Source: Balneola sp. (GTDB lineage Bacteria > Bacteroidota > Rhodothermia > Balneolales > Balneolaceae). From it: a DNA stretch of 24,000 nucleotides. The position numbers and the translations under genes are program-made. Shown here piece by piece: positions 258 through 24,000 of this stretch. The notes under the pieces were generated by a model that saw only the letters and a list, made by a program, of their open reading frames with translations, had not been told where the DNA came from and ran no database searches. Location: assembly GCA_039962805.1 (NCBI GenBank), contig JBDVIC010000002.1, positions 132,263 to 156,262 on the forward strand. The letters are read 5' to 3'. The first letter of the stretch is position 1. The number at the start of each line of letters is the position of its first letter.

Positions 258-650
258 ATGGAAGAGTTAAAAACAACGAAACCTGGATTTTGGGATAGAG
301 TAGGGATTGGGCTTTCAGGTATTTGTGCTATTCACTGTTTATTAGTACCTGTTGCTGTAGCTTTAATTCCATTATGGCCTGCTTTCGAAGAATTTCATGA
401 GTACACACATTTGATCTTCTTTATTGCTATTGCTCCTGCTGTTTATCTTTCTCTAAGAGGGAGGAATAAATCTCTAAAAATAACGGTGCTTTTAGCTTTA
501 GGAGTTTTTGTGATCTTTGTAGCATGGTTCTTTAATGAATCACTTGGTGAATATGGAGAAGCTGCTATTACGCTAATAGGAAGTATACTTCTTATCACAG
601 GACACTGGCTCAACTATAAATCAAAGTTTAAGCGAAGTACTACAGAATAG
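258..650 (+). CDS. small polytopic membrane protein, MerC-like (putative metal-ion transport)
   Basis: 130-aa ORF, almost entirely hydrophobic helices. The first helix carries GICAIHCLLVPV (Cys-x3-Cys followed by Pro), as I recall for MerC-domain proteins. Family assignment is by eye only. Confidence 0.45.
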   Translation: MEELKTTKPGFWDRVGIGLSGICAIHCLLVPVAVALIPLWPAFEEFHEYTHLIFFIAIAPAVYLSLRGRNKSLKITVLLALGVFVIFVAWFFNESLGEYGEAAITLIGSILLITGHWLNYKSKFKRSTTE

Positions 651-2802: not shown

Positions 2803-3183
2803 ATGACTCAAAGCATGAATAGTAATAAGAAAATACTGATCGTAGAAGATGATATGATCATCTCTTTAGTTGTGGAGAATATGGTTAAGGAGTTAGGCTA
2901 TTCAGTAGTAGGGAAAGCTGTTTCAGGGGAAGAAGCGATAAAAATCGCTCAGGAAGAACAGCCGGATATTTTACTAATGGATATCCGTTTGAAAGGAGAC
3001 ATGGATGGAATAGATACGGTTGCTAAGATCAAAGAGAGTATTGATCCTAAGGTAATTTATCTAACAGGCAACTCAGATCGCTTAAACTTTGAACGTGCCA
3101 AGGACACTGACTTTGCTGATTTGATAGTTAAACCATTTACAATTGGAGATCTTGATAAATCATTGAAGTTACTGGTTGATTAA
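2803..3183 (+). CDS. stand-alone response regulator receiver domain (CheY-like)
   Basis: 126 aa. Acidic pocket ILIVEDD, phospho-acceptor context DILLMDIRL, conserved LTG and KPF positions. No output domain and no adjacent histidine kinase. Confidence 0.85.
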   Translation: MTQSMNSNKKILIVEDDMIISLVVENMVKELGYSVVGKAVSGEEAIKIAQEEQPDILLMDIRLKGDMDGIDTVAKIKESIDPKVIYLTGNSDRLNFERAKDTDFADLIVKPFTIGDLDKSLKLLVD

Positions 3184-4013: not shown

Positions 4014-4583
4014 ATGAAACTATTTATTTCTACGCTAACATTAGCAATTTTGTTAACGTTTTCGACACACACAAAAGCACAAACTGCCCCCACTAAAGAC
4101 AGGTCTGGAATAGGACCAAAAGTAGGTTATTACAAAGCTCCTGATGCTGAAGACGGCGCTATGTTCATTGGAGTACAAACAAGAACAAGAGGAGAAGTTT
4201 TTGGATTTGAACTTGCTGCTGAATATAGAGGAGAGCAAAGTTATTCTACAACCAATGGTGACCTAACCATCAAGCAAATTCCAGTTACTGCAACTTTATT
4301 GATGCATGTACCTTTAGCGTCTAATTTCCAACCATACGGTTTAGCCGGTCTTGGAGCTTATTATACTTTTTATGATTATGATGGTGGCTTCGTAAACCCA
4401 GGTGATGATGCAGAATTTAATCTAGGTTATCATTTAGGCTTTGGTCTCGATCTACCTCTTAATGAAAGTGCAGGACTAAATGTTGATTACCGATATTTAT
4501 TTCTGGATGACAAAGGTGATGACTTAGCAGATACAGAGTTTAGTGGAAATGTGATATCAGCAGGATTAACATTTTATTTCTAA
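4014..4583 (+). CDS. small outer-membrane beta-barrel protein (OmpW/OmpA-beta-barrel-like)
   Basis: Signal peptide ending HTKA|Q. Alternating hydrophobic beta-strand patterns with Gly/aromatic girdles. C-terminus ...SAGLTFYF ends in Phe, the typical OMP beta-signal. Confidence 0.7.
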   Translation: MKLFISTLTLAILLTFSTHTKAQTAPTKDRSGIGPKVGYYKAPDAEDGAMFIGVQTRTRGEVFGFELAAEYRGEQSYSTTNGDLTIKQIPVTATLLMHVPLASNFQPYGLAGLGAYYTFYDYDGGFVNPGDDAEFNLGYHLGFGLDLPLNESAGLNVDYRYLFLDDKGDDLADTEFSGNVISAGLTFYF

Positions 4584-11192: not shown

Positions 11193-11217
11193 TAAAACTC
11201 ACTAATAAGACGAAATT

Positions 11218-12483
11218 ATGGCTATTAAGATAGAAATGCCGAAGCTGAGCGACACTATGGAAGAAGGAGTGATCGCAAAATGGAATGTTAAAGAAGGTGA
11301 TAAAATTTCTGCGGGAGATATTATTGCTGAGGTGGAAACAGATAAAGCAACTATGGATGTAGAAGCTTTTGATGATGGAACACTCCTTAAAATTTTTCCT
11401 GCTGAAGGCGATGCAGTTCCACTAGGTGGATTAATTGCTGTTATTGGTGAAGAAGGAGAAGATATTTCAGATATCATTGATGGAGCAGGTGGTAGTTCTT
11501 CCTCATCTTCAGAAGATTCTTCAAAGGAAGAGAAAACTGAGGAAAAATCTGATTCCAAATCAGAAGAGGAAGAAAAGACAGCTTCTGATAATGAGAAAAA
11601 AGAAAGTACTTCTTCTTCAGATGATGGAAGAGTAAAAGCATCTCCATTAGCAAAGAAAATGGCTGAAGACAAAGGAATTGATATTTCTTCAGTAAAAGGA
11701 TCAGGTCCTGAAGGTCGTATTGTTAAAAAGGATATCGAGGACTTTAAAGCAGATGGAAAAGCAGCTAAATCGAGCACTTCATCTACTCAGAGTTACCAGA
11801 GTTTAGAAAGTAAAGAAGTGAAAGTTTCTCAAATGAGAAAAGTAATAGCTCGTCGACTTTCTGAAAGTAAATTTACGAATCCACATTTTTATGAAACTAT
11901 CGACATTGACATGAAGGCTGCATTTGCTGCTCGATCTTCAATGAATGAAGCAAATGATGTAAAGATAAGCTTCAACGATATTGTTGTGAAGGCTTGTGCT
12001 ATCGCTCTAACGCGTCATCAAGCAATAAACAGCTCTTGGCATGATGATGTAATTAAAGAGCATGGTGACGTTCATGTGGCTGTTGCAGTTGCAATCGATG
12101 AAGGTTTAATGACCCCTGTAATTAATCATACTGACAAAAAAGGCTTAGCTGAAATTTCTGCAGAAACCAGAGAGTTAGCGGGTTTAGCTAGAGATAGAAA
12201 ATTACAGCCGGAACAAATGGAAGGAAGTACTTTTACGATTTCCAATTTAGGAATGTTCGGAATAGAAGATTTTACTGCTATCATTAATCCACCTAATGCT
12301 TGTATTTTAGCTGTTGGTGCGATCAGAGATGTGCCTGTAATTGAGAACGGTGAAGTTGTTCCTGGCAAGAGAATGAAGGTTACTTTATCAAGCGACCATA
12401 GAGTTGTTGATGGAGCAAAAGCTGCACAGTTCTTGAATACGGTGAAAAATCTTCTTGAAAATCCTCTTTCTATGTTATTATAA
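11218..12483 (+). CDS. pdhC: dihydrolipoamide acetyltransferase (PDH E2)
   Basis: Lipoyl domain with the ETDKATMDVEA lipoyl-Lys motif, subunit-binding domain ASPLAKKMAEDKGIDISSVKGSGPEGRIVKKDIE, and catalytic domain with DHRVVDGA. Confidence 0.92.
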   Translation: MAIKIEMPKLSDTMEEGVIAKWNVKEGDKISAGDIIAEVETDKATMDVEAFDDGTLLKIFPAEGDAVPLGGLIAVIGEEGEDISDIIDGAGGSSSSSSEDSSKEEKTEEKSDSKSEEEEKTASDNEKKESTSSSDDGRVKASPLAKKMAEDKGIDISSVKGSGPEGRIVKKDIEDFKADGKAAKSSTSSTQSYQSLESKEVKVSQMRKVIARRLSESKFTNPHFYETIDIDMKAAFAARSSMNEANDVKISFNDIVVKACAIALTRHQAINSSWHDDVIKEHGDVHVAVAVAIDEGLMTPVINHTDKKGLAEISAETRELAGLARDRKLQPEQMEGSTFTISNLGMFGIEDFTAIINPPNACILAVGAIRDVPVIENGEVVPGKRMKVTLSSDHRVVDGAKAAQFLNTVKNLLENPLSMLL

Positions 12484-12511
12484 GCTAACTAGAAAAAATT
12501 ATTTAAGTAAA

Positions 12512-12543
12512 AGCTCTGATAAATCATCAGGGCTTTTTTTTTT
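12512..12543 (+). terminator. rho-independent terminator between the convergent pdh operon and the MotB-like gene
   Basis: Stem agctctgat / atcagggct (one G-T wobble), loop aaatc, then a run of 9-10 T. On the other strand only a short U-tract follows, so it mainly terminates the + strand operon. Confidence 0.65.
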
Positions 12544-12548
12544 GAGGC

Positions 12549-14258
12549 TTATTTAACTCGCTCGATAAGATAAATGATAGAGCTGAGGTCGGAGCTATCA
12601 CGGCTAAAAGTATTGTATAAGGATAGTATTTCTTCCCAATTAGAAAATGGTCGAGATACTAAATAATACCTGTTATTATCATATAATTTGATGCTACTCT
12701 CCAGACCCATTTCAGCTTTTATTCTTTGGGCGAGTATATCTGCATCGTTTCTATTTGAAAATGATGCTATTTGGAGTTGATATAAAAAAGTGTACTCAGA
12801 TACAGATTCAGGATCATACTTAATAAAAGCATTATTAAGCCCATCAAAACTCTTAATTTCTTGTAGTCTCTGTTCTATCCTCCTTCTACTAGAAATGGGC
12901 TTTGTAAGCACAGAATAAGCTTGGAGTGACATCTGGTTAATCTCAGCATCTATATCAAAATCAGTAGCTATCGTTTCTTTAAAATTAAGAGCATTTTGTT
13001 CATTTTGGAAAAAGCCCAACTGAATTTGATAAGTTATAGGTAAGGGACGTTTAGATGTATTTTCGTAGCATTGCTGAATTACCCCAGTAACTAAATCCTC
13101 ATCTACTTTGCTAATTATATCTTCCTGTATACTTAAAATGTCAGAAAAAGAGCCTTTGCTAGCCGTCCGAACGGAAAACAAACGATTATTATAGGTGATA
13201 TCAAAAGTGTAACCGGTTTGACGCTCAGCTTCATCTGCAGCATTTAGGCTTTGTATAAAAGATTCAAAGTTCCCCAACTGAACTGCATAGGAACATCCGG
13301 CTGCATCTGTATCAACTTTTCTAGGAGTAGTTGTTGATGTGTTCTCTGTATTTTGAGGTGTATTTACAGGTTGAGTTACAGAAGCGCTGGTATTCTCATC
13401 ATCTGAAAACTCAGGATCGGAATTGGTTGGTTCATTCTCAGTATCATTTTCATCAACTTCAGCGGCAATATTCTCAACTATGTTTTCAAGAATAGCAGAA
13501 CTATCAGTATTGATCTCTGATTCATTGGATAAAAGTACAGAATCTGCTCCTGCAACTGATTCCGGGTTGGAATAATATAAACGCAAGACTACGCGTCTAT
13601 TCTCATCCTTATTAGCCGGCATTGGATTTCCCTGATCATCGAAATTAACTAATGGACGTGAGTCAGCATAGCCAGAAGCTTTTAATCGTTTTTGAGGAAG
13701 CCCCATTTCGCTAAAATAACGAACAATATTAGAAGCTCTGGAAGTAGATAATTCCCAATTTGATGGAAATGAGGAGGAGGAAATAGGAACGTTGTCTGTA
13801 TGTCCTTCTACATCAATTTCGAAATCATTATATTCAATGAGTTGAAAAGCAGCCAATACCCGATTAAGTATTTGCGTTGCATCGTCCTGTAATTGAGCAC
13901 TTCCCGAATTGTAAAGATCATCACTTTTAAACCTTATTCTTACATCGTTAAGCTCTCTAAATATCTCCAATTGCCCCGCATCAATTTCCGGTTTTAATAG
14001 AATTTCGAGTTCTTCTTTTATTTTTTCTATAGGGGTAGTGATAAACTCTGATTGGTCATCAGATGATTTGAATAAATCCGAAACAGAGAATGATTCTCCA
14101 TTATTCAATTCTGAAAATGAAAGTAAAATCACAAGAAAACCAAGAAGTATAGTAATTATATCAAGATAACTAACCTGCCAACTGTCATCATCTTCCGGTT
14201 CCATTTCCTGTTTAGGAAATAGTGAGTTCTTTTTGCTATTTACGTGATCTGAATCCAA
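12549..14258 (-). CDS. MotB-like stator protein: TM with conserved Asp, OmpA-type peptidoglycan-binding domain, three C-terminal SPOR-like repeats
   Basis: 569 aa, TTG start 13 nt after the MotA-like stop. SWQVSYLDIITILLGFLVILLSF matches the MotB pattern W-x-[VT]-[ST]-Y-x-D-h-h-T-h-L at the cytoplasmic end of the TM (Asp33, codon 14160-14162). The OmpA-like core is EGHTDNVPI...SNWELSTSRASNIVRYF...ASGYADSRPL...NRRVVL. An acidic low-complexity linker follows. Then come three repeats with the SPOR pattern Y-x-[VIL]-Q-[LI]-[GA]-x-F...A, e.g. YQLQIASFSNRNDADILAQRIK...YYLVSRPFSNWEE. Confidence 0.85.
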   Translation of the reverse strand: MDSDHVNSKKNSLFPKQEMEPEDDDSWQVSYLDIITILLGFLVILLSFSELNNGESFSVSDLFKSSDDQSEFITTPIEKIKEELEILLKPEIDAGQLEIFRELNDVRIRFKSDDLYNSGSAQLQDDATQILNRVLAAFQLIEYNDFEIDVEGHTDNVPISSSSFPSNWELSTSRASNIVRYFSEMGLPQKRLKASGYADSRPLVNFDDQGNPMPANKDENRRVVLRLYYSNPESVAGADSVLLSNESEINTDSSAILENIVENIAAEVDENDTENEPTNSDPEFSDDENTSASVTQPVNTPQNTENTSTTTPRKVDTDAAGCSYAVQLGNFESFIQSLNAADEAERQTGYTFDITYNNRLFSVRTASKGSFSDILSIQEDIISKVDEDLVTGVIQQCYENTSKRPLPITYQIQLGFFQNEQNALNFKETIATDFDIDAEINQMSLQAYSVLTKPISSRRRIEQRLQEIKSFDGLNNAFIKYDPESVSEYTFLYQLQIASFSNRNDADILAQRIKAEMGLESSIKLYDNNRYYLVSRPFSNWEEILSLYNTFSRDSSDLSSIIYLIERVK

Positions 14259-14271
14259 CTATACTATCTGC

Positions 14272-15069
14272 CTAAAACTGTTGACTTGTTCGGTGCATAT
14301 GTGCTTTTAGCTTGTCATATATCTGTAGGGAAGACTTTTGTTGTTGAATCAGAAGTATACCCTCTAGAATTAATTTCTCTCTGAAGAACTGAAGAGAGGC
14401 AATGTTATTCATTTTCTTTGCCATAGGTACGAAAATGAAATTCCCAATAAGAATTCCATAAAGGGTGGTCATTAATGCCGCAGCTAACCCAGTTAATAAA
14501 GAATCCATTTCGTTAAATCCTGAAAGAAGAACAATAAGCCCAAACAAAGTCCCCAACATGCCAAATACAGGAGCTGTTTTTCCCATACTTGCTATAATTT
14601 GGTTGATCTGTTGTTGCCTAGTATAAGTTTCCTGGATGTTTATTTCGGCAAGTTCACGAAGCTCTTCTGTAGAATAATTTGTATCCAAAATTGAGAACAA
14701 ATACCCTTCAAAACGGTTGCTATATTCTTCACTTAGTTCTGAAACTGCTTTTATTTTATCAGCTCGTATTCTTTTTTGCCATTCAAGAATCTTTTCAATG
14801 TCTTGCTCTAATAAGCTATCATCAATATTGCTATGAGAAAAGAGGCGAGTGCTTTCTCCAAGAGCTTTAATTACTTTTTTGAATGGGAAACTTATAAATA
14901 CACTAGCTGAAATTCCGCCAAATACAATAGCGAGACTTGGTAAATTCAAGAACTCATATTTAGACGGTACTATATTATATTGAGCGAAGCCTGTCACTAA
15001 TAATGCCCCCCACACTAAGATGATTAAGGAGAGTAAGAAACTAAGTATATTTAAAAATGAAGTACGCAT
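14272..15069 (-). CDS. MotA/PomA-like proton-channel stator protein (MotA_ExbB family, 4 TM)
   Basis: 265 aa. Two N-terminal TMs, a ~100-aa charged cytoplasmic loop, then TAPVFGMLGTLFGLIVLL and LAAALMTTLYGILIGNFIFVPMAKKM, which match the MotA/ExbB channel core including both conserved Pro positions. The 4-TM topology fits MotA rather than 3-TM ExbB/TolQ. Confidence 0.85.
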   Translation of the reverse strand: MRTSFLNILSFLLSLIILVWGALLVTGFAQYNIVPSKYEFLNLPSLAIVFGGISASVFISFPFKKVIKALGESTRLFSHSNIDDSLLEQDIEKILEWQKRIRADKIKAVSELSEEYSNRFEGYLFSILDTNYSTEELRELAEINIQETYTRQQQINQIIASMGKTAPVFGMLGTLFGLIVLLSGFNEMDSLLTGLAAALMTTLYGILIGNFIFVPMAKKMNNIASLQFFREKLILEGILLIQQQKSSLQIYDKLKAHMHRTSQQF

Positions 15070-15078
15070 ATATTAGTT

Positions 15079-15588
15079 TTAATTAGGTTTTCTGTCTGGG
15101 AATTCATCAATCAGGCCTTGTCTTTTTAATTCTTCAACAATTAAGGGGGAAGGAGGAATGGGTAAATCTTTATCTAGATCGAGGGCTTGTCTCCAATATG
15201 TAACAAAATTTTCTATTGAACCTAATCCTAAATAAATACTGCCTTTCAACGCTAAGATATCTGCCGTTTGTTTAATGCTTGCAGCTACATTTATTAAGGC
15301 AAGGGCTTCTTGAAATTCATTGTTATAGAATTTTTGTTGAGCAGAGATGTAAAGTGAAGTTATTCTATTAGCTTGTATTTGATGGGTTTTATAGAGCTCA
15401 TCTTTATACAACTGCTCTAATGAGTCTCTACGGGCTTCTTCTTTTAGAACCAAAGGATCTACCGTACTTGTATCTGCCTGGATGGTATCACTGGTTTCCG
15501 GTGAGGCAGGAAGTGAATTATCCATAGCTTCTTTAGAACTTCCACAACCTGTTACAAATGTAAGAGAAAGCCCAAAAAGCATTATCAA
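15079..15588 (-). CDS. TPR-like lipoprotein
   Basis: 169 aa. Short signal sequence ending in lipobox FVTG|C. The start is TTG 15588 or ATG 15582. The C-terminal half is helical-repeat/TPR-like (FYNNEFQEALALINVAASI...ALKGSIYLGLGSIENFVTYWRQALDLD) and paralogous to the C-terminus of the 997-aa OM protein. Confidence 0.6.
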   Translation of the reverse strand: MIMLFGLSLTFVTGCGSSKEAMDNSLPASPETSDTIQADTSTVDPLVLKEEARRDSLEQLYKDELYKTHQIQANRITSLYISAQQKFYNNEFQEALALINVAASIKQTADILALKGSIYLGLGSIENFVTYWRQALDLDKDLPIPPSPLIVEELKRQGLIDEFPDRKPN

Positions 15589-15610: not shown

Positions 15611-17443
15611 TTAGTCTTGATCTTGCTTACTCAATTTTAAGGATTCTCTTAGTGAACTCACTAAAATCATTTTTGCTTTTCCTGTGTTTTCCTGCTCGCC
15701 ATCCAATTCCTCTAGTTCTAAGCGGATAAGTTGTTGCTCTCGCTTTGGTCTACCTGTTAATATTTTTTCTTTGGATATGTTATCAAGTCCCACTAAAGCT
15801 TCTAACAATGTAGATGTATCGATAGATTCGATTCCATTTTTTATTACTTCTTCATCAAGCTCAGGAATCTGGTCAATAGTAAAGAATTCTCTTTCAAGAA
15901 TATCACCAATAGGAGAACCGGTAGACTTTAACTGTTCTATATATTGCTTTTGTTCATCAACTGGTAAGTTTTCAAGAATTGGAAGGATATTTTCAACTCC
16001 ATAATCCTGTTGCTGTACATTATCTCTTACTTTAACCGCTTTCTCAAACAGGTTACCAGAAATAAGGCTTTGCTCCTTGTATGAAACGGTATGAAGAGTA
16101 GACATTTTGAGCATTATTTCTGCAGCTCTGGAGCGTTCAAAAGAGTTTAGAATAGAAGCTCCTTTTTCTTGTGGTAAATAGTCAAGGATTAAAGCTGCAC
16201 TTACATTATTCTCAGTTTTAATAAGCTCAGAAATCAAATTATCCGGTAAGTGAGTTAAGAACTTAAACAAACCAAGCTTAGCATGTTTCTTGGTAGACTT
16301 AGCATCCGTTTCTTCATCTTCTATGATTGAATTAAAATATTTAGCTGCTCTATATTTTTCATCAATCGACATTGCCTCTAAGTTAGTAATAGCATTAGCT
16401 ATTATGGCATATTTTTCTTCATCAAGATGATTATGAATCAGTTTAAGTGAGCTTTGATCAATAGCAGAAATGACTTCAGCAACATTCTTAGGACCATTTT
16501 TAGGATCGCTTTCAATCCAAAATTCAAATACCAGTGCTACTTCTTGTGGGTATTTGAAGAAGTTCTCAGAAACTAATTCAAATTCTGTTGCAATATCACG
16601 AGACTTCTCTTTACTGCTTCCATGAAAAGACATATTGCTGTCAGGGTTTAGGCTCCCTTCAACAGTTATATCACTTTTAATATTATCTCTTTGCGACTTT
16701 ACACTGGCTTGTTCTTTTGGTTTTCTGAAATAGCCCACGACAAGCAAGCCAACTAAAAAGACTCCCATAAGAATTATTTCTACGGTATAGTCTTTAAAAG
16801 AGGAAAGAAGGCTTTTAGGCTCGGGGTCTTCTAAAGTAATTACGGATGTAGGCTTGAAACTAGGATCAGGAATGGCAAGCTGAGTAATGTTTATCACATC
16901 TCCCCGAGCTAAATCAACTTTAGCTGCAAAACCGGTTACACGTCGCATAAAATCTAAATCGGTATCAGAAAGAGATGTATCGGCATAAACATTAACTGCC
17001 AAACTATTAAGTTTCAAACTTTTTACGGTGTTCCTGCTCAACACTGCTTCCGGTGATTGAGAAGCAGGTTGATTATTTTGAAGGTTTTCCTCAGGAAGGA
17101 AGGGTAGACCCGGCATAAACGTGTTTTGAGGTCTTCTGTTTACTACTTGATTATCAGTGCTTTGAAAAGTTTCTTCAACGAATTCTGCATCAATGTTCAC
17201 ATCAACAAAAAACTTTTTCCTATCAAAGTGATTGGATAATATTTGAATGATTTGAGAATCGTAGGCTTGTTCTAGAGATGCAATTTGAAGATCACCAGAT
17301 TGAGTTGAAGCATTTGACTGGGCAAAAGTATCACTAGGTATTACACAGAGTAATAACAGAGCTACTAGTAGATTTCTTAATGAAGAATAATTTCTCACGA
17401 CTTGTTTAATCAACATAAATATTTCGGACAACCTAAAAATCAT
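15611..17443 (-). CDS. membrane-anchored FliG-like rotor protein with a periplasmic FliF/YscJ-like (ring-building-motif-like) domain
   Basis: 610 aa. Signal peptide/TM1 (LLVALLLLCVIPSDTFA|Q), ~175-aa periplasmic part, TM at aa 219-238 followed by basic RKPKEQ (cytoplasmic side). aa ~295-605 resemble the FliG N/M/C armadillo domains. ENNVSAALILDYLPQEKGASILNSFERSRAAEIMLKMSTLHTVS compares with the FliG middle EHPQtiAliLsyL-p-qAa-vL--lp-e-q-ev--Ria-m--vs. FFTIDQIPELDEEVIKNGIESIDTSTLLEALVGLDNISKEKILTGRPKREQQLIRLELEEL compares with FliG_C F-F-dl--ld-r-iq-ll-evd---L--ALkga-----ekf--nmS-Ra---l--dl. Alternative start ATG at 17416. Confidence 0.72.
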   Translation of the reverse strand: MIFRLSEIFMLIKQVVRNYSSLRNLLVALLLLCVIPSDTFAQSNASTQSGDLQIASLEQAYDSQIIQILSNHFDRKKFFVDVNIDAEFVEETFQSTDNQVVNRRPQNTFMPGLPFLPEENLQNNQPASQSPEAVLSRNTVKSLKLNSLAVNVYADTSLSDTDLDFMRRVTGFAAKVDLARGDVINITQLAIPDPSFKPTSVITLEDPEPKSLLSSFKDYTVEIILMGVFLVGLLVVGYFRKPKEQASVKSQRDNIKSDITVEGSLNPDSNMSFHGSSKEKSRDIATEFELVSENFFKYPQEVALVFEFWIESDPKNGPKNVAEVISAIDQSSLKLIHNHLDEEKYAIIANAITNLEAMSIDEKYRAAKYFNSIIEDEETDAKSTKKHAKLGLFKFLTHLPDNLISELIKTENNVSAALILDYLPQEKGASILNSFERSRAAEIMLKMSTLHTVSYKEQSLISGNLFEKAVKVRDNVQQQDYGVENILPILENLPVDEQKQYIEQLKSTGSPIGDILEREFFTIDQIPELDEEVIKNGIESIDTSTLLEALVGLDNISKEKILTGRPKREQQLIRLELEELDGEQENTGKAKMILVSSLRESLKLSKQDQD

Positions 17444-17451
17444 TGATTCTC

Positions 17452-20445
17452 TTAATCCTCTGGTTGAGTTTTAATTATTTGATCCAATACTTCTATCTCA
17501 GGAATAACGATTTCAGGATTAAATTCGGCAGCCAAATCCCAATTCTTTTGTGCTTCAGCTTTATTACCATTTAAATAATTCAGACTTCCTTTTAAGGCAT
17601 ACCCTTGAGCGGTTTCAAACAACGCCAACGATTCGTTAACAAAAGTTAAAGCTCTATCAATATTTCTATTGTAAAAAGCCGTTTGTGCTTGAATAATTAA
17701 ACGTAGGGCATTATCTACATCCTTATCTAGCTTTTCTTCAAGTTCAATTATTTCTGCACTTTCTTTTACGCTAGCTATTATAGATTCAGTTGAAATAGTA
17801 TTTACTTGTTCTGGTTCAAAATCTTCTGGTACGATCATGAATTCTAAGCCTTCAACAAAATCACCATCCGCTAAAGCTTTGATATCAAAACTAACTTTAC
17901 TCGGTAAAGATTTTGAGTTTAATATGTTCAGTTGGGAAGGGTCAATGGATAGTTCATAATTTCCGGGGGGAATTTCATAAGCATAAAAGCTACCGTCTGA
18001 GAAGGTCCGTAATTCCTGAACAGTATTTTGATCTATATTATTTAGAAATAATCTGATCCCTCCAATACCATCTTCTGTTTCTGCGTCAAAACGACGATTT
18101 ACAACACCTTCAATTATACCAGTGGAATAAAACGGTACATCAATTGGTTTAAAATAATTTGGATCAGAGATCACCCCAAATTTTTCTTGTTTAGGTACAA
18201 GCAGGGGATTCTGAATGGCACCTTTATTGATCTCCATATTATATTTGAAATAAGGCTGCATTTGCGTGATATAGGTAATGCCATTTTTCGAGGTTGTAGA
18301 CCCCGTTCTATCTAAACGTATAGCATTATTTTTGATCAATTCGTCGCCCTCTGAGAATTTCTCATCTCCATCATAATCCACGAATAATCTAACAGCCGCT
18401 GCAGAACGACCAACTTGATTCCGGCTAGTTAGGAAAAGATTATTGTTATTGGCATCGTAACCTATAGATCCACGAACGGTATTTGTAACTGAACTAGAGC
18501 TTCTGATATTTCTATAACGAGAATTGACTCTGGTTTTATTAAAGTCGATTACAATGCTGGCTGAAATGGAGTTATAATTAAATCTAAAATTTCTTGCTAC
18601 GTTAAGTTGAATATTTCCCTTTTTGAAGACTTTTCGAGAAAGAAAAAACTGAATGTCATCCAGCTCACTAGAAGTTGGTAGAAAAGAGATCTCTCCACGT
18701 GCAAACATTCCATGAAAGACCTTAGGAGTGGTATTGGTTCTTGGGAAATTGTATGTAAGTGAAAAATTAGCGGAAGCATTTTCACTCAGCTCAAAAAAAT
18801 CATTTGTCGTATTCGAGTTGCTAAAGCCAGTTCTAACATTAAATCGCCCTAGCCTGGTACTTAGATCTACTCTATATCTTGAAATAGGACGAGGTTCACG
18901 TTCAATTCGAGAACCAAATAACCGAATGTTTAGAGGGATATTACCAATCAAAAAAGGATAGAATACACTTCCCTGTAATTCTTGATCATAATTTCCTGAG
19001 TTATAAATTCTATTTTGTGCAAAGTAATTAGTATACGCTAAACTAATACTGGCAGCATTTGCTAAGATTGTACTACCACGAGTTCGAACAAAAGCATCAT
19101 TAGCAATTTCTGTACTAAATAAATACCTATTAAATAAACGAGCTGAAAGACCGCCTGTAAAAGTAGGTAAGGAGGTATTTAAAGACTCAAAATATTCAGC
19201 TCCGGCCCTTGCAGTGAGCCAATTTGATATACCAATTACAGTATTGGCCTGGGCTGTTAATCCACGCTCCTGAGTGCCTATAAGTGGGTTTTCGAGTTCG
19301 CCAAGATCTATATTGTAGTTGATTTCACCTGGAGGAAGAAAAGAAAAAGGAACCTGTATTCTCTTGGAACGTTCTACAACTTGACCTGTAGGACCAAATA
19401 TTTTTATATCGTATGCTGAAGTACCGTAAGTAAGGGGGGTGATAAAACGGTAATTGCCTGTTTCATCAGTTTCTTGAAAATCAGCTAGCGTATTATTGAT
19501 GTAAAGCTCAACTTCTGAGCGAGAAAATGTATTTCCTTGGATCACAAATTCATCGTATAGTCTTCTTGGCTCAAGAGGCTGGTTGGTAATTTTTATACCT
19601 CGATAAGGATTGTTTAATATACCGGATGAGCTTGTTTGTCCTGCGGTAACACTACTAATAACAGGACTATCTGTAATTGCATACCTCCAACGTAAATTAC
19701 TTGTAGTAACGTTCGAAGCATCAGCTGAATATGCGCCATTTATAGCTCCCTGAACATCTCCACCGAGAGCTTCTGCTCCAATAGCTGTATTAAATAGAAA
19801 GATACTAGATTCATCACTGGTGATAGCAGATAAGTTATAATCTAAAAATCCTAAACCAAGAATTTTGCGATCTCTACCGTACTCGACCGGGTAATTTAAA
19901 TTAAGCGTTCGGTCATTGCGTTGGATTTGCTGGCGTCTATTTTGACGAATAAGCTTTTGAACTACCGGGATGTTTTTATCAGTTTCAAGAAGAAGTGCTA
20001 GATTGTTGAAATCGACATCAAAATCTAAACCAAATAACTCATTAAAAATGGAAATTTCTAGGTAATAGTCTAAATCTTTGATCAGAAAATCATCGCTGGT
20101 TAACGAGAGGTTTTTGTTACCGGATGAAGCTTGAAAAGTACTTAAATTTATTTGATAAGGTGTTTCCTCTTCTAAGAAATTACCATATAGAACCACACCT
20201 GCATTAAGCCTTGTGTTATGATCTATTTCAAGCAGTTGAAATACTTCTTTGTAAGGAATGTAGAATGTATCATTTTTATAATATGCTATTACCACAGAAT
20301 TAATGGCACTTCTATATGAAAATGAAAGATACACTTCTATTTCATCGTCGCTTGTAGATTGAGCCTTTAGAGAACTAAAAGCCCCATAACACACAAGCAA
20401 ACAAAGAAAGTTGATAGAAATATATTTCCATTTTCTTGAGGTCAC
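17452..20445 (-). CDS. large outer-membrane beta-barrel protein in the usher position (usher-like assembly pore candidate) with CarboxypepD_reg-like domains and a C-terminal TPR-like module
   Basis: 997 aa. GTG start overlaps the upstream stop (GTGA at 20442-20445). Signal peptide ...SSLKA|Q. The long central region has alternating beta-strand patterns rich in Y/F/N/R/G. There are two carboxypeptidase-regulatory-like beta-sandwich signatures (TDETGNYRFITPLTYGTSAYDIKIF; RTFSDGSFYAYEIPPGNYELSI). A TPR-like tail occupies aa ~914-985. Homology to PapC/FimD ushers is NOT established by eye. Confidence 0.5.
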   Translation of the reverse strand: MTSRKWKYISINFLCLLVCYGAFSSLKAQSTSDDEIEVYLSFSYRSAINSVVIAYYKNDTFYIPYKEVFQLLEIDHNTRLNAGVVLYGNFLEEETPYQINLSTFQASSGNKNLSLTSDDFLIKDLDYYLEISIFNELFGLDFDVDFNNLALLLETDKNIPVVQKLIRQNRRQQIQRNDRTLNLNYPVEYGRDRKILGLGFLDYNLSAITSDESSIFLFNTAIGAEALGGDVQGAINGAYSADASNVTTSNLRWRYAITDSPVISSVTAGQTSSSGILNNPYRGIKITNQPLEPRRLYDEFVIQGNTFSRSEVELYINNTLADFQETDETGNYRFITPLTYGTSAYDIKIFGPTGQVVERSKRIQVPFSFLPPGEINYNIDLGELENPLIGTQERGLTAQANTVIGISNWLTARAGAEYFESLNTSLPTFTGGLSARLFNRYLFSTEIANDAFVRTRGSTILANAASISLAYTNYFAQNRIYNSGNYDQELQGSVFYPFLIGNIPLNIRLFGSRIEREPRPISRYRVDLSTRLGRFNVRTGFSNSNTTNDFFELSENASANFSLTYNFPRTNTTPKVFHGMFARGEISFLPTSSELDDIQFFLSRKVFKKGNIQLNVARNFRFNYNSISASIVIDFNKTRVNSRYRNIRSSSSVTNTVRGSIGYDANNNNLFLTSRNQVGRSAAAVRLFVDYDGDEKFSEGDELIKNNAIRLDRTGSTTSKNGITYITQMQPYFKYNMEINKGAIQNPLLVPKQEKFGVISDPNYFKPIDVPFYSTGIIEGVVNRRFDAETEDGIGGIRLFLNNIDQNTVQELRTFSDGSFYAYEIPPGNYELSIDPSQLNILNSKSLPSKVSFDIKALADGDFVEGLEFMIVPEDFEPEQVNTISTESIIASVKESAEIIELEEKLDKDVDNALRLIIQAQTAFYNRNIDRALTFVNESLALFETAQGYALKGSLNYLNGNKAEAQKNWDLAAEFNPEIVIPEIEVLDQIIKTQPED

Positions 20446-21272
20446 CGTATAGTGAATTGGGTTGAGGTTGATACGGGCTCCATTTTAACAATATTTTCGC
20501 TAGAAACGTCGCTACGTTGTGTTTCAAAAATAACTTCAGCAGTATAAGTGCCTGCCGATAATCCTTGAATATCGACTTCTTGACTATGTGTACCATCAAA
20601 ATATATGGTAGTAGAACGGAAAGAGGATTTAACTACATTATTGTTAGCATCTTTCACATTAACAGTAATAGATCCAAGAAAAGGGGAGTTACCGCCTCGT
20701 TCTAGTTTGGTTCTTACTTCTACAAAACCATCATCAGTAAGCAGAGCCTCTGTTCCGAGTACATTAATATCAGTGGTTACAGTACCTTTTTTATAGTAAA
20801 GTCCAGTTATTTGCTCAATGGTTATGCCCACTCTTGCAGATACAGAATTGTCATTCTGTAATTCTACCGGCGGAGTTTGAGCAGTAGATCTGGTTTTAAT
20901 TCTTGCCCAGTAGGTACCATCATTTAGATTATTGGGAGGAGCAACGCGCAAACGTACTACTTGTCGTTGACCGGGAGTGAGAGTAAAGTTCCTTGGAAAA
21001 GACTGGACCCAAGTATGAGCAGAATGTTCCTCTTGTTGTTCCATGTCGTCATACACAATACTCCTACTTCCTTCCTCATCAGTTGCTGTGTATGCAAATA
21101 TAAACTCGATAGACACTTCCTGTGGTTCGTTTGACCCATTTAAAACCAAGTAGGTTCCAAAGCGAGTATTTTCTTCTATAAAGATGTTTGTTGGAGAGAT
21201 GGTGATTTGCCCTAATATGTTGGTAGAGCATAACATAAACACCCAAATGACAAGCGATAATGATTTTTTCAT
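20442..21272 (-). CDS. periplasmic PapD-like fimbrial chaperone candidate
   Basis: 276 aa, signal peptide ...NILG|Q. Beta-rich, two-domain size. ITISPTNIFIEENTRFGTYLVLNGSNEPQEV and SFPRNFTLTPGQRQVVRLRV resemble the PapD_N patterns (-P--f-l-pg--q-vRl-). It sits between the subunit genes and the usher-position gene. Confidence 0.6.
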   Translation of the reverse strand: MKKSLSLVIWVFMLCSTNILGQITISPTNIFIEENTRFGTYLVLNGSNEPQEVSIEFIFAYTATDEEGSRSIVYDDMEQQEEHSAHTWVQSFPRNFTLTPGQRQVVRLRVAPPNNLNDGTYWARIKTRSTAQTPPVELQNDNSVSARVGITIEQITGLYYKKGTVTTDINVLGTEALLTDDGFVEVRTKLERGGNSPFLGSITVNVKDANNNVVKSSFRSTTIYFDGTHSQEVDIQGLSAGTYTAEVIFETQRSDVSSENIVKMEPVSTSTQFTIR

Positions 21273-21357: not shown

Positions 21358-21390
21358 AAAAAAAAAGTCTCATTATTGAATAATGAGACT
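21358..21390 (-). terminator. rho-independent terminator/attenuator immediately after the 4th (putative major) subunit gene
   Basis: On the minus strand, stem agtctcatta / taatgagact (21366-21375 and 21381-21390), 5-nt loop, followed by 8 U (A-run at 21358-21365 on the + strand). It lies 19 nt after the stop at 21409. Confidence 0.6.
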
Positions 21391-21408
21391 TTTGTAAGAA
21401 ACTTAATC

Positions 21409-21921
21409 CTAGTCGTAAGTGATAGTAAAAGTCATTACGTTAGATGTTCCAAGAGAAGTACTGTACGCACCAGTTTGTGAAGGAGCAGCTAATTCACCTC
21501 CAACATCCAAAGTAATATCACCACCAGTAAGAGTTACAGTACCACCATCAGTTACTTCTGAGCCACCTAACCAAACAGAAGGAGTAAAAACGATAGGATC
21601 ATCATCTTCAGTTCTATTAAGAGTAGCGGTAGTCCAGTCAACAACAACGTCAACACCAGAAGTACCAACGATCTGTAAAGCACCAGCAGTTGCTCCATCA
21701 CCTAAGTTTGCTTCTGTCGCATCATCATTAGAATTAGCATCAATAATTGAGTTAGCGCCAGTTTGGATAGTTCCTAGAGCAACATCAGTAGGTGTTAATA
21801 CAAGTGCGGCTTCAACCTGAGCTGTTACAGCAACGTTAGCTGTTTCCTGAGCAAGAATGTTAGCAGAACCAACAAGGATCATCAAAGCGAAAGCAGTAAA
21901 TAATTTGTTTAAATTTTTCAT
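21409..21921 (-). CDS. secreted DUF4402/spore-coat-U-like fibre subunit, putative major subunit
   Basis: The ORF track starts at TTG 21960. ATG 21921 gives a canonical signal peptide, MKNLNKLFTAFALMILVGSANILA|Q. The mature protein is rich in T/G/A/V/D. It ends ...GGELAAPSQTGAYSTSLGTSNVMTFTITYD, matching the family C-terminal pattern G-x-Y...h-x-h-x-h-x-Y-[DE] at the very C-terminus. It has its own upstream intergenic gap and a downstream terminator. Confidence 0.65.
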   Translation of the reverse strand: MKNLNKLFTAFALMILVGSANILAQETANVAVTAQVEAALVLTPTDVALGTIQTGANSIIDANSNDDATEANLGDGATAGALQIVGTSGVDVVVDWTTATLNRTEDDDPIVFTPSVWLGGSEVTDGGTVTLTGGDITLDVGGELAAPSQTGAYSTSLGTSNVMTFTITYD

Positions 21922-22010
21922 GAGAGTAAATTTTGTTTTTTTGAGTTGTACAAATTTCAAACTTTCTCTGAGATATCACAAGTTAGAGTTTATTAATGAA
22001 GCGGAGTAGC

Positions 22011-22544
22011 TCACTCATAGTCAATAACAAGGCTTAGTTCTCCTTCATAAATACCGTTCGGTACATTCCCTACATCAATGAATCCATATATATAAATAAA
22101 CACCGTTTGCCACTCAAAACGGTCTTTTTGGGCGTTTTCGTTTACTTGGAGGTACATGTTATCACCACCAAAAGGGGTGGCTACATCAGGATTATTAGTG
22201 CCGGAATTGTTGTAAGCGGCCTGAAGATCTATGGGGATAGTTGCTTTTACTGCAGGATTAAGATGTTTTAATATATTTGTTGATTGCAATTCCATGCGAA
22301 GAATCTGGGAATTGATGGCAGTAACCGAAAATATACCCATACTAGGATCACCTAGATTGATATTTTTTGTACCTGAGTTTACAATGATATCACCGAAATT
22401 CAACTCAGATAGCACAGTGGCCTCGAGTTCAGGTTCTAACTCTATTTGTATGTTTATATACTGAGCAGTAGATGAAGTGCATAATAATAGGGAGAAGCAA
22501 AAAGCATAGAGGTAAAAGAGATATGAACAATGCTTCTTAATCAT
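22011..22544 (-). CDS. secreted DUF4402/spore-coat-U-like fibre subunit paralog
   Basis: 177 aa. ATG start overlaps the upstream gene by 8 nt. Signal peptide ...SSTA|Q. LNFGDIIVNSGTKNINL motif. C-terminus YIYGFIDVGNVPNGIYEGELSLVIDYE. Confidence 0.6.
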   Translation of the reverse strand: MIKKHCSYLFYLYAFCFSLLLCTSSTAQYINIQIELEPELEATVLSELNFGDIIVNSGTKNINLGDPSMGIFSVTAINSQILRMELQSTNILKHLNPAVKATIPIDLQAAYNNSGTNNPDVATPFGGDNMYLQVNENAQKDRFEWQTVFIYIYGFIDVGNVPNGIYEGELSLVIDYE

Positions 22545-23133
22545 AAATAATAGTAATGTCTATTTCAGCAGAGTAACTACCAGCATCAACGGTTCCAACA
22601 TTTAAAGATCCATACAAGTATAAGTAAGCAGTCTCATTATAAATTGAGGGATCATATCCATCATAAACCGGGGTAGGAGGTGGAGCGGGCGGCTCACTTG
22701 TTCTATAACGTATAGGGAATTGAGCAGTACCTGAATTAGCTACAACATTGACGATACGTGCTTGAGCTATATTATCACTCCCTCTATTAGCGTAAGCAGC
22801 TTCCAGAGTATAAGGGATACTGCAACTGGGGTCGCTGGTACAAGCAGGGTTTCCATTGAGCAAAAGTTTGCTATCCGCAGTGATAGTTAAAAAAACGTCT
22901 AAATATTTTACCCCGGTAATAGTGATCACTTTTGAGTTTGAGATACCAATATTGTTAGTACCACTACCGGAGATGATGGCGCCAAATTCAAAATCCGCTC
23001 CGGGATTTTGTTCAGCAACAGAAAGCGAATAGTTATAATAATCGCCAAAATCTATTTCTTGGCTGTGTACCGGTCTAATGCTTAATAAAAAGAGAAGGAT
23101 AAAGAGGGAATATGTTAAAGCTGATTTTATCAC
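22537..23133 (-). CDS. secreted DUF4402/spore-coat-U-like fibre subunit paralog with Cys pair and Pro-rich insert
   Basis: 198 aa. GTG start after a 3-nt gap (23134-23136) following the upstream stop. Signal peptide ...PVHS|Q. FEFGAIISGSGTNNIGI motif, CTSDPSC Cys pair, EPPAPPPTPVYDGYDP insert. C-terminus LYLYGSLNVGTVDAGSYSAEIDITIIYD. Confidence 0.6.
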   Translation of the reverse strand: MIKSALTYSLFILLFLLSIRPVHSQEIDFGDYYNYSLSVAEQNPGADFEFGAIISGSGTNNIGISNSKVITITGVKYLDVFLTITADSKLLLNGNPACTSDPSCSIPYTLEAAYANRGSDNIAQARIVNVVANSGTAQFPIRYRTSEPPAPPPTPVYDGYDPSIYNETAYLYLYGSLNVGTVDAGSYSAEIDITIIYD

Positions 23134-23136
23134 TAG

Positions 23137-23640
23137 TTAGATATAATCTATTTCGATTGTAAATTCACCTTCGTAGCTACCAGGCTTAGCTTGTTCCACA
23201 AAAACACGACCACCAACCCATATATAAAAATCTCCATCTGCATTAAAACTGAAACTCCTATTCTCAGCTCCAAGAACCTCAGAAGTCAACTGTTCGTCAA
23301 TATCATTTCCGGTTAGCTGATAAATAACACGAATTAAACCATCACCATTTATTTGGTTTAAGATCTGGTTAGGTTGAAAAGTGATACGAATCTCAGCATT
23401 TGGATTACCTGATGCGATCATATGTCCTGCGTTACCACTAGTAGCAGGAGGGATGAAAATTTCGTTATTAACAGGTTCTAAATTTGCTAACTGAATATTT
23501 TGCACAGTAACCATCTCAATAGCCTGTATAACTGTTGCTTCAATATTGATTTCAGCATTTACAGACCTTGAATTTGTTTGGGCTGTACTATTGATTGAAA
23601 ACACTAAAAATAATGCTGTAAACGAGATTAAGTATTTCAT
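23137..23640 (-). CDS. secreted DUF4402/spore-coat-U-like fibre subunit paralog (first gene of cluster)
   Basis: The ORF track starts at TTG 23673. ATG 23640 gives the signal peptide MKYLISFTALFLVFSINSTA|Q. C-terminus FYIWVGGRVFVEQAKPGSYEGEFTIEIDYI. Confidence 0.6.
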   Translation of the reverse strand: MKYLISFTALFLVFSINSTAQTNSRSVNAEINIEATVIQAIEMVTVQNIQLANLEPVNNEIFIPPATSGNAGHMIASGNPNAEIRITFQPNQILNQINGDGLIRVIYQLTGNDIDEQLTSEVLGAENRSFSFNADGDFYIWVGGRVFVEQAKPGSYEGEFTIEIDYI

Positions 23641-23762
23641 TCGTTGAGCTAATTTTTTCTTTAAATATTGCAATCTAATTGCTTATTAGCCAGTTAGTAT
23701 TTTTTAATAACAACGGATTAGAGCAAGAGTAAATTTCAAATAATAGTTTTAAACTACACTAC

Positions 23763-24000
23763 TTACTTAATTAGTGTAAACTTCTGGGTATAAACGCTAG
23801 AACCTGTAGTAAGTCGATAGAAATAAACCCCACTTGCAAGATTTTGGGCTTCAAAATTTATGTTATACTTCCCAGCAGAGAGGTTTTCATTAATAAGAGT
23901 ACTTACTTTTCTACCTAAGATGTCATAAATAATTAGGCTCACTTTAGATTCTACGTCTAATCCAAATGGAATTGTGGTAGATGGATTAAACGGGTTAGGG
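23763..24000 (-). CDS. 3' end of a gene for a T9SS-secreted protein (Por-secretion C-terminal sorting domain); 5' part lies outside the window
   Basis: My own translation of the minus strand (not in the ORF track because no start is in the window): PNPFNPSTTIPFGLDVESKVSLIIYDILGRKVSTLINENLSAGKYNINFEAQNLASGVYFYRLTTGSSVYTQKFTLIK*. It matches the T9SS CTD pattern NPFNP-T-I-F-L-----v-l-iyDilGr-V--l-------G-------------sGvYfyrl---------K--l-K. Stop codon at 23763-23765. Confidence 0.8.
   Translation of the reverse strand, partial: PNPFNPSTTIPFGLDVESKVSLIIYDILGRKVSTLINENLSAGKYNINFEAQNLASGVYFYRLTTGSSVYTQKFTLIK

Follow-up and report, generated by a model that had tools for sequence, protein, structure and literature searches.

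A predicted natural FliF-FliG fusion encoded with flagellar-type stator genes in a non-flagellar cluster of Balneola

The proton-motive-force-driven rotary machines treated in reviews are three only: Fo, the flagellar motor and the T9SS (type IX secretion system) (PMC9127263). Engineered or spontaneous fusions of the flagellar proteins FliF and FliG, in Salmonella and in Vibrio (PDB 8z4d/8z4g), assemble rings (PMC6079021, PMC10941966). The gene analysed here appears to encode such a fusion naturally. It lies in a 24,000-nucleotide stretch of Balneola sp. (Balneolaceae; GenBank assembly GCA_039962805.1, contig JBDVIC010000002.1, positions 132,263 to 156,262), called the window below. To our knowledge, the non-flagellar MotAB relatives known so far each use their own transducer and never FliG. 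Neither a natural FliF-FliG fusion, nor FliG with MotAB outside flagella, nor this fusion protein and its gene cluster was found described in the literature searched, the coverage of which was incomplete.

The fusion gene is an open reading frame (ORF) on the minus strand encoding 610 amino acids (aa), as a preliminary description made from the DNA alone had proposed. Its start codon is uncertain by at most 15 codons, and a 99%-identical NCBI protein of 595 aa (P0001) is annotated "MAG: hypothetical protein [Balneola sp.]". JGI labels the family "flagellar motor switch protein FliG". Homology of the protein to both FliF and FliG is seen in sequence profile as well as in fold. It almost certainly consists of a putative signal peptide, a FliF portion (ring-building motif 3 [RBM3] with beta-collar, second transmembrane helix [TM2] and FliG-binding tail) and a FliG portion (N, M and C domains), with no RBM1 or RBM2. 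The core of the preliminary description, a FliF-type ring-building domain, a transmembrane (TM) anchor and a three-domain FliG on one chain, is thus supported by both profile and fold, and the peptide blocks on which it drew are all in place (LEQAYDSQ... at aa 57-88, LNSLAVNVYADTS... at aa 145-189 and RPKREQQLIRLELEELDG at aa 565-582). The features of the gene are as follows.

15611..17443, minus strand: predicted FliF'-FliG fusion ORF, 610 aa (Pfam, phmmer, Foldseek, 101-sequence profile)
17318..17443, minus strand: N-terminal hydrophobic segment, aa 1-42, ending TFA/QS (hydropathy, family alignment)
16868..17296, minus strand: periplasmic domain like FliF RBM3/beta-collar (S-ring), aa 50-192, with RGD at aa 180-182 (AF2, Foldseek, hmmsearch/hhalign, conservation)
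17081..17116, minus strand: MPGLPFLPEENL loop, tip of the collar-like insertion, aa 110-121 (alignment, low predicted local distance difference test [pLDDT] score, conservation)
16721..16789, minus strand: TM helix, putative FliF TM2 equivalent, aa 219-241 (AlphaFold, hydropathy, hhalign)
16505..16591, minus strand: helix matching the FliF C-terminal FliG-binding motif, aa 285-313 (hmmsearch, profile, conservation)
16274..16504, minus strand: FliG_N-like helical domain, aa 314-390 (fold alignment only)
15923..16273, minus strand: FliG middle domain and helix MC, aa 391-507 (Pfam, phmmer, hhalign)
15614..15922, minus strand: FliG C-terminal domain, aa 508-610, with FFTI at aa 520-523 (Pfam, phmmer, hhalign, profile)
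15704..15751, minus strand: torque-helix equivalent RPKREQQLIRLELEEL, aa 565-580 (phmmer, hhalign, conservation)

Hydropathy analysis gives two hydrophobic segments, at aa 19-43 and aa 216-242. The first ends in TFA/QS, and the family consensus also ends in A-Q (alignment A1, 47 Balneolaceae sequences). This small-x-A/Q site suggests a cleavable Sec signal peptide rather than the TM1 of FliF, in which case the mature chain would span the membrane once. In the AlphaFold model of the full-length protein (pLDDT 73), a TM helix occupies aa 220-239, flanked by the basic residues RKPK and then by a linker (aa 243-279) that is disordered, in agreement with the anchor previously placed at aa 219-238 with a basic flank.

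The periplasmic domain was modelled with AlphaFold over aa 43-205 using 31 homologues (pLDDT 75). It begins with a helix and a long hairpin, which a disordered loop separates from a second long hairpin, and it finishes with another helix and a strand; a disordered Pro/Gly-rich loop inside the collar insertion is shared with FliF. The best 18 Foldseek matches in the PDB are all FliF S-ring/RBM3/collar structures of Salmonella and Vibrio, including 8z4g, 8zdt, 8ftf and 6sd1 (E-values: 9e-8 to 2e-6, probability 1). Confidence in the model is moderate and its TM-scores against FliF are about 0.5. The next matches are SpoIIIAG (E-value: 7e-4) and PrgK (E-value: 8e-3). SpoIIIAG and PrgK/YscJ share the ring-building-motif fold, and the beta insertion of SpoIIIAG forms a collar-like barrel, but these matches are far weaker than those to FliF RBM3, no sequence relation to them was found, and they have neither a FliG fusion nor a MotAB partner.

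A profile of 101 family members was searched against PDB sequences. Positions 107-310 of this profile match Salmonella FliF from residue 358 to its last residue, 560 (E-value: 2.1e-7), a region that lies C-terminal to RBM2, and Vibrio FliF is matched with an E-value of 4.6e-6. By hhalign, the family matches E. coli FliF 221-552 (93.7% probability) over RBM3b and TM2. The match is colinear, with ...EKRGDSLNVVNSPF opposite ...LARGDVINITQLAIP, then TM2, then the tail. The likeness to the C-terminal half of FliF is therefore one of both fold (Foldseek E-value: ~1e-7) and sequence, the profile match to FliF 358-560 including the RGD after helix 2, TM2 and the tail helix. This relation emerged only with the 101-sequence profile; the narrow Balneolaceae periplasmic profile (A2) matched no FliF among PDB sequences, and hhalign of A1 against full-length E. 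coli FliF gave a spurious match only.

The periplasmic part had earlier been assigned to RBM2. That an RBM fold is present holds true, but Foldseek, the profile and hhalign all favour RBM3 with a beta-collar-like insertion, and the RBM2 assignment was rejected. Both RBM1 and RBM2 are missing, as the periplasmic part is only about 150-175 aa long and is accounted for by one RBM, and the profile covers only FliF 358-560. RBM1 and RBM2 of FliF, which form the inner M-ring, house the export gate. Without them, the fusion would have no housing for a type III export gate.

The FliF likeness continues beyond TM2. The sequence YPQEVALVFEFWIESD of the fusion (aa ~285-313) corresponds to DPRVVALVIRQWINND at the C-terminal end of E. 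coli FliF, and in hmmsearch the family positions up to 313 reach the last residue of that protein, 552. The motif P-x-x-V-A-L-V-x-x-x-W-I is common to aa 285-313 and the C-terminal FliG-binding helix of FliF. Its Trp, W309, is present in 91/101 sequences (conservation counts here and below refer to the 101-sequence family set unless A1 is named). In FliF this helix is cytoplasmic and binds FliG_N; its counterpart in the fusion is a putative FliG-binding tail. A FliF-type FliG-binding helix at the junction indicates a true end-to-end FliF'-FliG fusion. Because the preliminary description missed this helix, its FliG N segment started too early; the true start is later. Unlike FliF, the fusion chain runs past the FliG-binding helix into FliG and is encoded away from flagellar genes.

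The cytoplasmic half has the Pfam domains FliG_C (E-value: 6e-10, 39.8 bits; cutoff 23.3) and FliG_M (E-value: 1.1e-9, 38.8 bits; cutoff 25). TIGR00207 scores the fusion at 55.8 bits, far under the equivalog cutoff of 226.7, and so the protein has a FliG-family domain set but is not an orthodox FliG equivalog. A phmmer search of PDB sequences with the fusion returned FliG chains only. The best match was the T. maritima FliG-MC structure (E-value: 1.6e-10), spanning aa 403-581, with FFTI aligned with MFVF and RPKREQQLIRLELE with MSKRAAALLKDELE. The 101-sequence profile matches PDB FliG chains with an E-value of 5e-44, and hhalign places aa 403-598 of the family on E. coli FliG 115-310 (94% probability). 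In Foldseek searches with the full-length model, whole FliG chains (including 8wiw_3, 8umx_B and 3hjl) are the top PDB matches, with 311-327 columns aligned on targets of 310-331 residues at probability 1. This coverage implies that all three FliG domains are present. Of the N, M and C segments previously proposed, M and C are thus recovered by Pfam, phmmer and profile. N is recovered by fold alignment, its sole support, since FliG_N is undetected by sequence in aa 314-390.

One alternative for this region, which the preliminary description itself had raised as a counter-case, is a regulatory helical repeat of the MgtE-N kind (for example a cation sensor), unrelated to torque generation. MgtE_N and FliG domains have related folds, and Pfam MgtE_N does match aa 395-451 (E-value: 2e-6, 28.6 bits), just over its cutoff and overlapping FliG_M. 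However, FliG_C and FliG_M score higher, the best Foldseek matches are full-length FliG, and the profile search of the PDB found FliG and FliF only, with no MgtE chain, at E <= 0.01. No CBS pair or MgtE transporter (membrane) domain is present in the fusion, and the torque-helix Arg is conserved. The MgtE-N-like reading was rejected and is scarcely credible.

In the hhalign register of the torque helix, R568 corresponds to R281 of E. coli FliG, L575 to the D288 position and E576 to D289. The first of these positions is basic in 99/101 sequences (R in 90, K in 9), and E576 is invariant in A1 and kept in the Balneolaceae loci examined. The preliminary description had stated that the torque-helix charges persist; its register was right and the claim holds for R568 and, within the Balneolaceae, for E576, but not for D288, now Leu or Met. 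The FliM-binding EHPQR motif is reduced to E411 (the equivalent of E125, Glu in 68/101) with a Gln that is also common, the rest being lost, and the R160 equivalent is variable (E in 24, S in 18, K in 15).

The likeness to FliG therefore extends to the M and C domains by sequence, the whole fold, the MFXF-like FFTI and the equivalents of R281 and, in the Balneolaceae, D289. Unlike flagellar FliG, a soluble protein held to the FliF C-terminus by non-covalent docking, the fusion is covalently membrane-anchored, its FliG-like region lying in the same ORF behind a TM helix and a FliF-tail-like helix; D288 and most of EHPQR are replaced, the N domain is unrecognisable by sequence, and no fliM or fliN lies near the gene. 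By profile and fold the protein belongs to the FliF and FliG superfamilies, but it is without the defining features of either family proper: it has no RBM1/2 and no EHPQR, is not soluble and is encoded at a non-flagellar locus. The laboratory FliF-FliG fusions likewise carry both proteins on one chain, for which the 1:1 stoichiometry makes fusion structurally natural. They contain full-length FliF within a flagellum, whereas the Balneola fusion is natural, lacks RBM1-2, is family-wide and belongs to a non-flagellar operon.

Three genes follow the fusion gene on the same strand, with gaps of 9-22 bp, encoding a TPR lipoprotein, a MotA-like protein and a MotB-like protein.

15079..15588, minus strand: TPR lipoprotein, 169 aa, lipobox VTGC (sequence, Pfam, locus comparison)
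14272..15069, minus strand: flagellar-type MotA/PomA-like stator A subunit, 265 aa (Pfam, NCBIfam, alignment)
12549..14258, minus strand: MotB-like stator B subunit, 569 aa, with plug, TM Asp, OmpA-like domain and two C-terminal SPOR domains (Pfam, NCBIfam, sequence)
12509..12537, no strand assigned: hairpin flanked by a T run on either side, where the motB-like gene converges with the pyruvate dehydrogenase (PDH) E2 gene (hairpin scan)

The hairpin likely marks the 3' end of the operon. The MotA-like protein has the conserved domain MotA_ExbB (Pfam E-value: 1.3e-18); the TolQ model scores it at merely 2e-3. The best NCBIfam models for the stator pair are MotP, MotA and PomA, and MotD/MotB, all under their equivalog cutoffs. 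In the alignment with E. coli MotA, both P173 and P222 have conserved counterparts, 47/48 orthologues have K/R at the R90 position, and an acidic cluster surrounds the E98 position. A flagellar-type MotA with a basic R90 position is thus encoded two genes downstream of the FliG domains, a further likeness to the flagellar system. The MotB-like protein has the Pfam domains MotB_plug (E-value: 1.7e-7) and OmpA (E-value: 4.5e-15), with the channel Asp in YLDIITILL. After OmpA it has a long acidic low-complexity linker and two SPOR domains, which bind septal/denuded glycan and might localise the stators to division sites or poles. In remote clusters a plain 220-aa MotB takes the place of the SPOR-bearing form.

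The locus therefore encodes a complete flagellar torque-generating interface: a flagellar-type stator, a FliG with the Arg and Glu, and an S-ring domain with TM2 and tail. A functional FliG-MotA interface at the locus is quite probable. FliG and MotA also change together by clade: FliG LELSEM/LELDEI occurs with MotA LSRTY/LSKTY, and FliG LELEEL/MELDEL with MotA LSEEY (loci L019, L021, L023, L025, L026 and L030 compared with the others). The comparison is confounded by phylogeny, and these may be compensatory charge changes or plain shared ancestry.

A membrane-anchored FliG look-alike could instead act as a decoy or brake, sequestering MotAB to regulate another motor, as a FliG_C domain with the conserved torque-helix Arg could bind MotA. 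The MotAB genes are, however, in the same operon as the fusion and are conserved together with it, the hosts are mostly non-motile, and the S-ring/collar domain, TPR partners and fibre genes would be needless for a decoy. This explanation is highly improbable.

The cluster comprises ten genes: four DUF4402 genes, a weakly PapD-like gene, a gene for a weakly usher-like 997-aa protein, the fusion, the TPR lipoprotein, MotA and MotB. The ten genes are present in identical order in all 46 Balneolaceae species loci with a long enough contig; in Gracilimonas tropica the same order has unrelated flanks. This conservation points to a dedicated system under selection. Relatives at only 17-24% identity retain the core: with the DUF4402 genes come one or two PapD-like proteins of ~280 aa and one protein of ~980-1015 aa, as well as the fusion, MotA and a MotB that is short. 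The TPR protein is present in some of these remote clusters, and in some a response regulator and kinase are added. In L003 (9755-11928) and L004 (13728-15898), the genes immediately after motB encode an AraC-type response regulator and a histidine kinase, a pair that is missing from the Balneolaceae clusters and that suggests two-component control of the system. In most contexts the gene after that of the ring protein encodes a TPR protein, short FliG-less variants included, while L003 and L004 pass directly to MotA.

The setting is not flagellar. No FliM/FliN, export gate, rod, hook or flagellin is encoded in the cluster or the window, and no fliM or fliN was found at any related locus examined. 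The preliminary description was correct that the gene lies outside a flagellar locus, and this extends to all related loci, where the neighbours are non-flagellar except for MotAB. The fusion could nevertheless be part of a true flagellum, replacing or supplementing a FliF/FliG encoded elsewhere, or a decaying remnant of one. The JGI annotation as FliG is in keeping with this, and a study of the Balneolaceae reads the flagellar genes of the family as remnants of a lost flagellum (PMC9909488). The same study reports flagellar-assembly genes to be absent from Balneola and Gracilimonas, and G. tropica is described as non-motile (PMC9909488). The motifs of the fusion are intact and invariant in 46 species including G. 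tropica, its gene is always found among non-flagellar secreted-protein genes, the FliM-binding residues are not conserved, and RBM1 and RBM2, in which the export gate would be housed, are missing. That the fusion is part or relic of a flagellum is thus very unlikely.

Upstream of the fusion gene, also on the minus strand, are the putative fibre genes.

17452..20445, minus strand: secreted 997-aa protein with CarboxypepD_reg-like beta-sandwich and C-terminal TPR module, tentatively usher-like (Pfam, hhalign)
20442..21272, minus strand: secreted 276-aa protein, weakly PapD-chaperone-like, its stop overlapping the start of the 997-aa gene (Pfam, hhalign)
21363..21393, minus strand: strong terminator-like hairpin with a 14-bp stem and a T run, separating the PapD-like gene from the fourth DUF4402-like gene (hairpin scan)
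21409..23673, minus strand: four tandem small secreted proteins of the DUF4402 kind (178, 198, 177 and 183 aa), putative fibre subunits (Pfam, locus comparison)

The DUF4402 assignment is solid (14 small proteins match, best E-value: 5e-15). No paper on DUF4402 was found in the literature searched, coverage being incomplete. This upstream set is tentatively called chaperone-usher-like. In common with classical Fim/Pap and archaic Csu-type chaperone-usher systems, it has small secreted subunit genes, a hairpin and a ~30-kDa PapD-like protein gene overlapping that of a ~100-kDa secreted protein. The similarity to those systems is marginal, however: the large protein has a TPR module at its end and the subunits are uncharacterised DUF4402 proteins; moreover, the known pathway is independent of an inner-membrane energy source. 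The hairpin at 21363-21393 resembles attenuators that follow major-pilin genes in fimbrial operons, which suggests the 183-aa DUF4402-like protein as the major subunit. Cross-matches in phmmer show that the TPR module with which the 997-aa protein ends (17452-17750) is paralogous to the 169-aa TPR lipoprotein. In G. tropica (L001 591-3444), the genes immediately upstream of the DUF4402 set encode three small unknown proteins and a DUF4900 protein of 455 aa; the window stops at 24000, short of the equivalent region.

Two motifs of the periplasmic domain are nearly invariant across the family. LPGLP (aa 110-114) has P in 99, G in 97, L in 91 and P in 96 of the 101 sequences and forms a low-confidence loop at the tip of the collar insertion, while RGD (aa 180-182) has R in 93, G in 99 and D in 101. 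The MPGLPFLPEENL loop is a candidate docking peptide of the ring protein, and the near-invariant LPGLPFLP is an obvious candidate ligand for the TPR modules.

The mechanism that we propose runs as follows. The periplasmic RBM3 domains would oligomerise into an S-ring-like collar, as in FliF, whose rings have ~33/34 subunits. Because FliF and FliG assemble 1:1, the oligomer would set a FliG ring beneath the membrane, with one FliG per collar subunit. MotA5B2 units, fixed to the peptidoglycan by their OmpA and SPOR domains, would push on the torque helix of FliG_C at its conserved Arg/Glu, so that the ring is turned or strained. From the collar, perhaps by way of the LPGLP loop held by TPR modules, the work would reach the fibre apparatus of the outer membrane, and the DUF4402 fibre could be assembled, extruded, rotated or retracted. 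CheY-type switching is not expected, as there are no FliM-binding residues and no C-ring genes. On balance, the fusion probably serves as ring (rotor) subunit in an ion-driven machine that is not flagellar and is coupled to a fibre system of the envelope. Within that proposal, the chances that the ring truly rotates appear evenly balanced, and its coupling to the fibre genes could equally well prove right or wrong. The autonomous small rotor suggested by the preliminary description is likewise a hypothesis. A more novel reading, possible but doubtful, is that the locus encodes an unrecognised ion-driven rotary envelope machine: a torque core of MotAB stators, FliG ring and FliF S-ring/collar, separated from the switch, rod, hook and type III export apparatus and wired by TPR modules and the LPGLP collar loop to a chaperone-usher-like DUF4402 fibre. 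Such a powered pilus would be spun, extruded or retracted by the flow of protons or sodium. The DUF4402 fibres may even be the "flagella" seen on motile Balneola vulgaris, a member of a genus reported without flagellar-assembly genes.

Several observations weigh against the proposed ring (rotor) machine. In the torque helix, D288 has no conserved acidic counterpart, and only 37/101 sequences of the wide family have Glu as the D289 equivalent. The fibre genes resemble chaperone-usher genes only weakly, although the matches agree in direction. Pfam PapD_N (0.003), Usher (0.013) and TcfC (0.008) match only a few members. In hhalign, four E. coli fimbrial chaperones give 63% probability (E-value: 7e-5) with the 276-aa family, and four E. 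coli ushers give 9.6% (E-value: 3e-3) with the 997-aa family, the latter match being colinear over the plug region. PDB sequence-profile searches with the 997-aa, 276-aa and DUF4402 proteins found no relatives. B. vulgaris is described as motile and flagellated (PMC5167729) and flagellins are present in some Balneolaeota (PMC7018530), both of which would suit a flagellar part or relic.

The remote relatives speak partly for the proposal and partly against it. A periplasmic-domain profile search of 1.84 billion representative proteins found 143, mostly of 580-750 aa with the domain N-terminal. Among 77 remote relatives scanned, all found through the periplasmic domain alone, 64 have FliG_C, 52 have FliG_M and 15 have Pfam YscJ_FliF_C (best E-value: 2.8e-9), which speaks for a dedicated system. 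Nine of the 77 have an N-terminal, peptidoglycan-binding LysM domain on the same chain; the full-length P0117 (L003 5844-8267) is a LysM-bearing relative. A ring tethered in this way is hard to reconcile with free rotation in that part of the family. Short FliG-less relatives (331 aa, or 385 aa with LysM; for example P0134, L059 431-1588, and P0128, L058 97-1092) keep the RBM3-like domain and TM helix. A full-length relative at L052 has TPR and unknown proteins as neighbours, with no MotAB or fibre genes nearby. The ring domain can thus serve in other settings.

These relatives bear most directly on the main alternative, in which the fusion is a static energy-transducing scaffold. Here a ring or smaller oligomer would be fixed in the envelope, and MotAB acting on FliG_C would drive a cyclic conformational change, as with TonB, TolA or GltG, that gates or energises an outer-membrane protein. 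The LysM-bearing relatives would be expected to be tethered to peptidoglycan, the TPR partners and periplasm-facing collar suggest stable envelope-spanning contacts, and the MotAB relatives ExbBD, TolQR and AglRQS use non-rotating transducers (PMC9389320 and established knowledge). However, LysM is absent from the window protein and from every Balneolaceae member, the stator belongs to the flagellar type and has a plug, and the parts retained (S-ring/collar, FliG and torque-helix Arg) are those that rotate in the flagellum. A static scaffold is rather unlikely, though far from negligible.

The proposed ring machine resembles GldLM/T9SS, ExbBD-TonB, TolQRA, AglRQS-Glt and ZorAB in that the genes of an inner-membrane MotAB-family motor accompany those of partners spanning the envelope, and the motor presumably powers a process at the outer membrane (PMC9389320, PMC9127263). 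Those systems differ in having their own transducers (GldM, TonB, TolA, GltG/J and the ZorB tail) and A subunits not of the flagellar type, and none has a FliG or MS-ring domain. A Zorya or other defence system was considered and rejected; PADLOC gave generic ZorB/MotB matches for the MotB-like protein only, and nothing for the MotA-like protein or other cluster genes, with no ZorA match for MotA and no ZorC/D.

The flagellar torque core may thus have been reused for another machine; that the system around the fusion is categorically new is only a tentative suggestion. If the proposal is true, this would be the first natural case in which the flagellar rotor-stator interface is kept and the rest of the flagellum dropped, and structural and single-molecule studies would gain a minimal rotor-stator system of two to three proteins. 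It would also be a living example of modular reuse, or of an ancestral-like state, bearing on flagellar motor evolution, and it would challenge the rule that fibre assembly of the chaperone-usher type needs no inner-membrane energy. Surveys record rotor proteins in non-motile genomes, unexplained (PMC12199754). KEGG-style tallies of fliG, motA and motB in non-motile Balneolaceae probably include this cluster, which would inflate the counts and may mislead inference of flagellar loss (PMC9909488).

Some minor observations concern the searches and the rest of the window. A contig scan with family-specific patterns returned Balneolaceae only, a profile search with alignment A3 returned 6 proteins only, and one remote-cluster contig is Balneolales-like, judged from RecA. 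In one short variant the next gene encodes a sigma-54 response regulator. Two antisense ORFs are probably spurious, one of 106 aa inside the fusion gene (15684-16004, plus strand) and one of 191 aa within the PDH genes (11202-11777, minus strand). The remaining window genes are housekeeping genes (AlaRS, pyruvate dehydrogenase E1/E2 and others). A MerC-like membrane protein (258-650, plus strand), a CheY-like receiver of 126 aa (2803-3183, plus strand) and an OmpW/OMP beta-barrel protein (4014-4583, plus strand) are encoded elsewhere in the window, with no evident link to the cluster.

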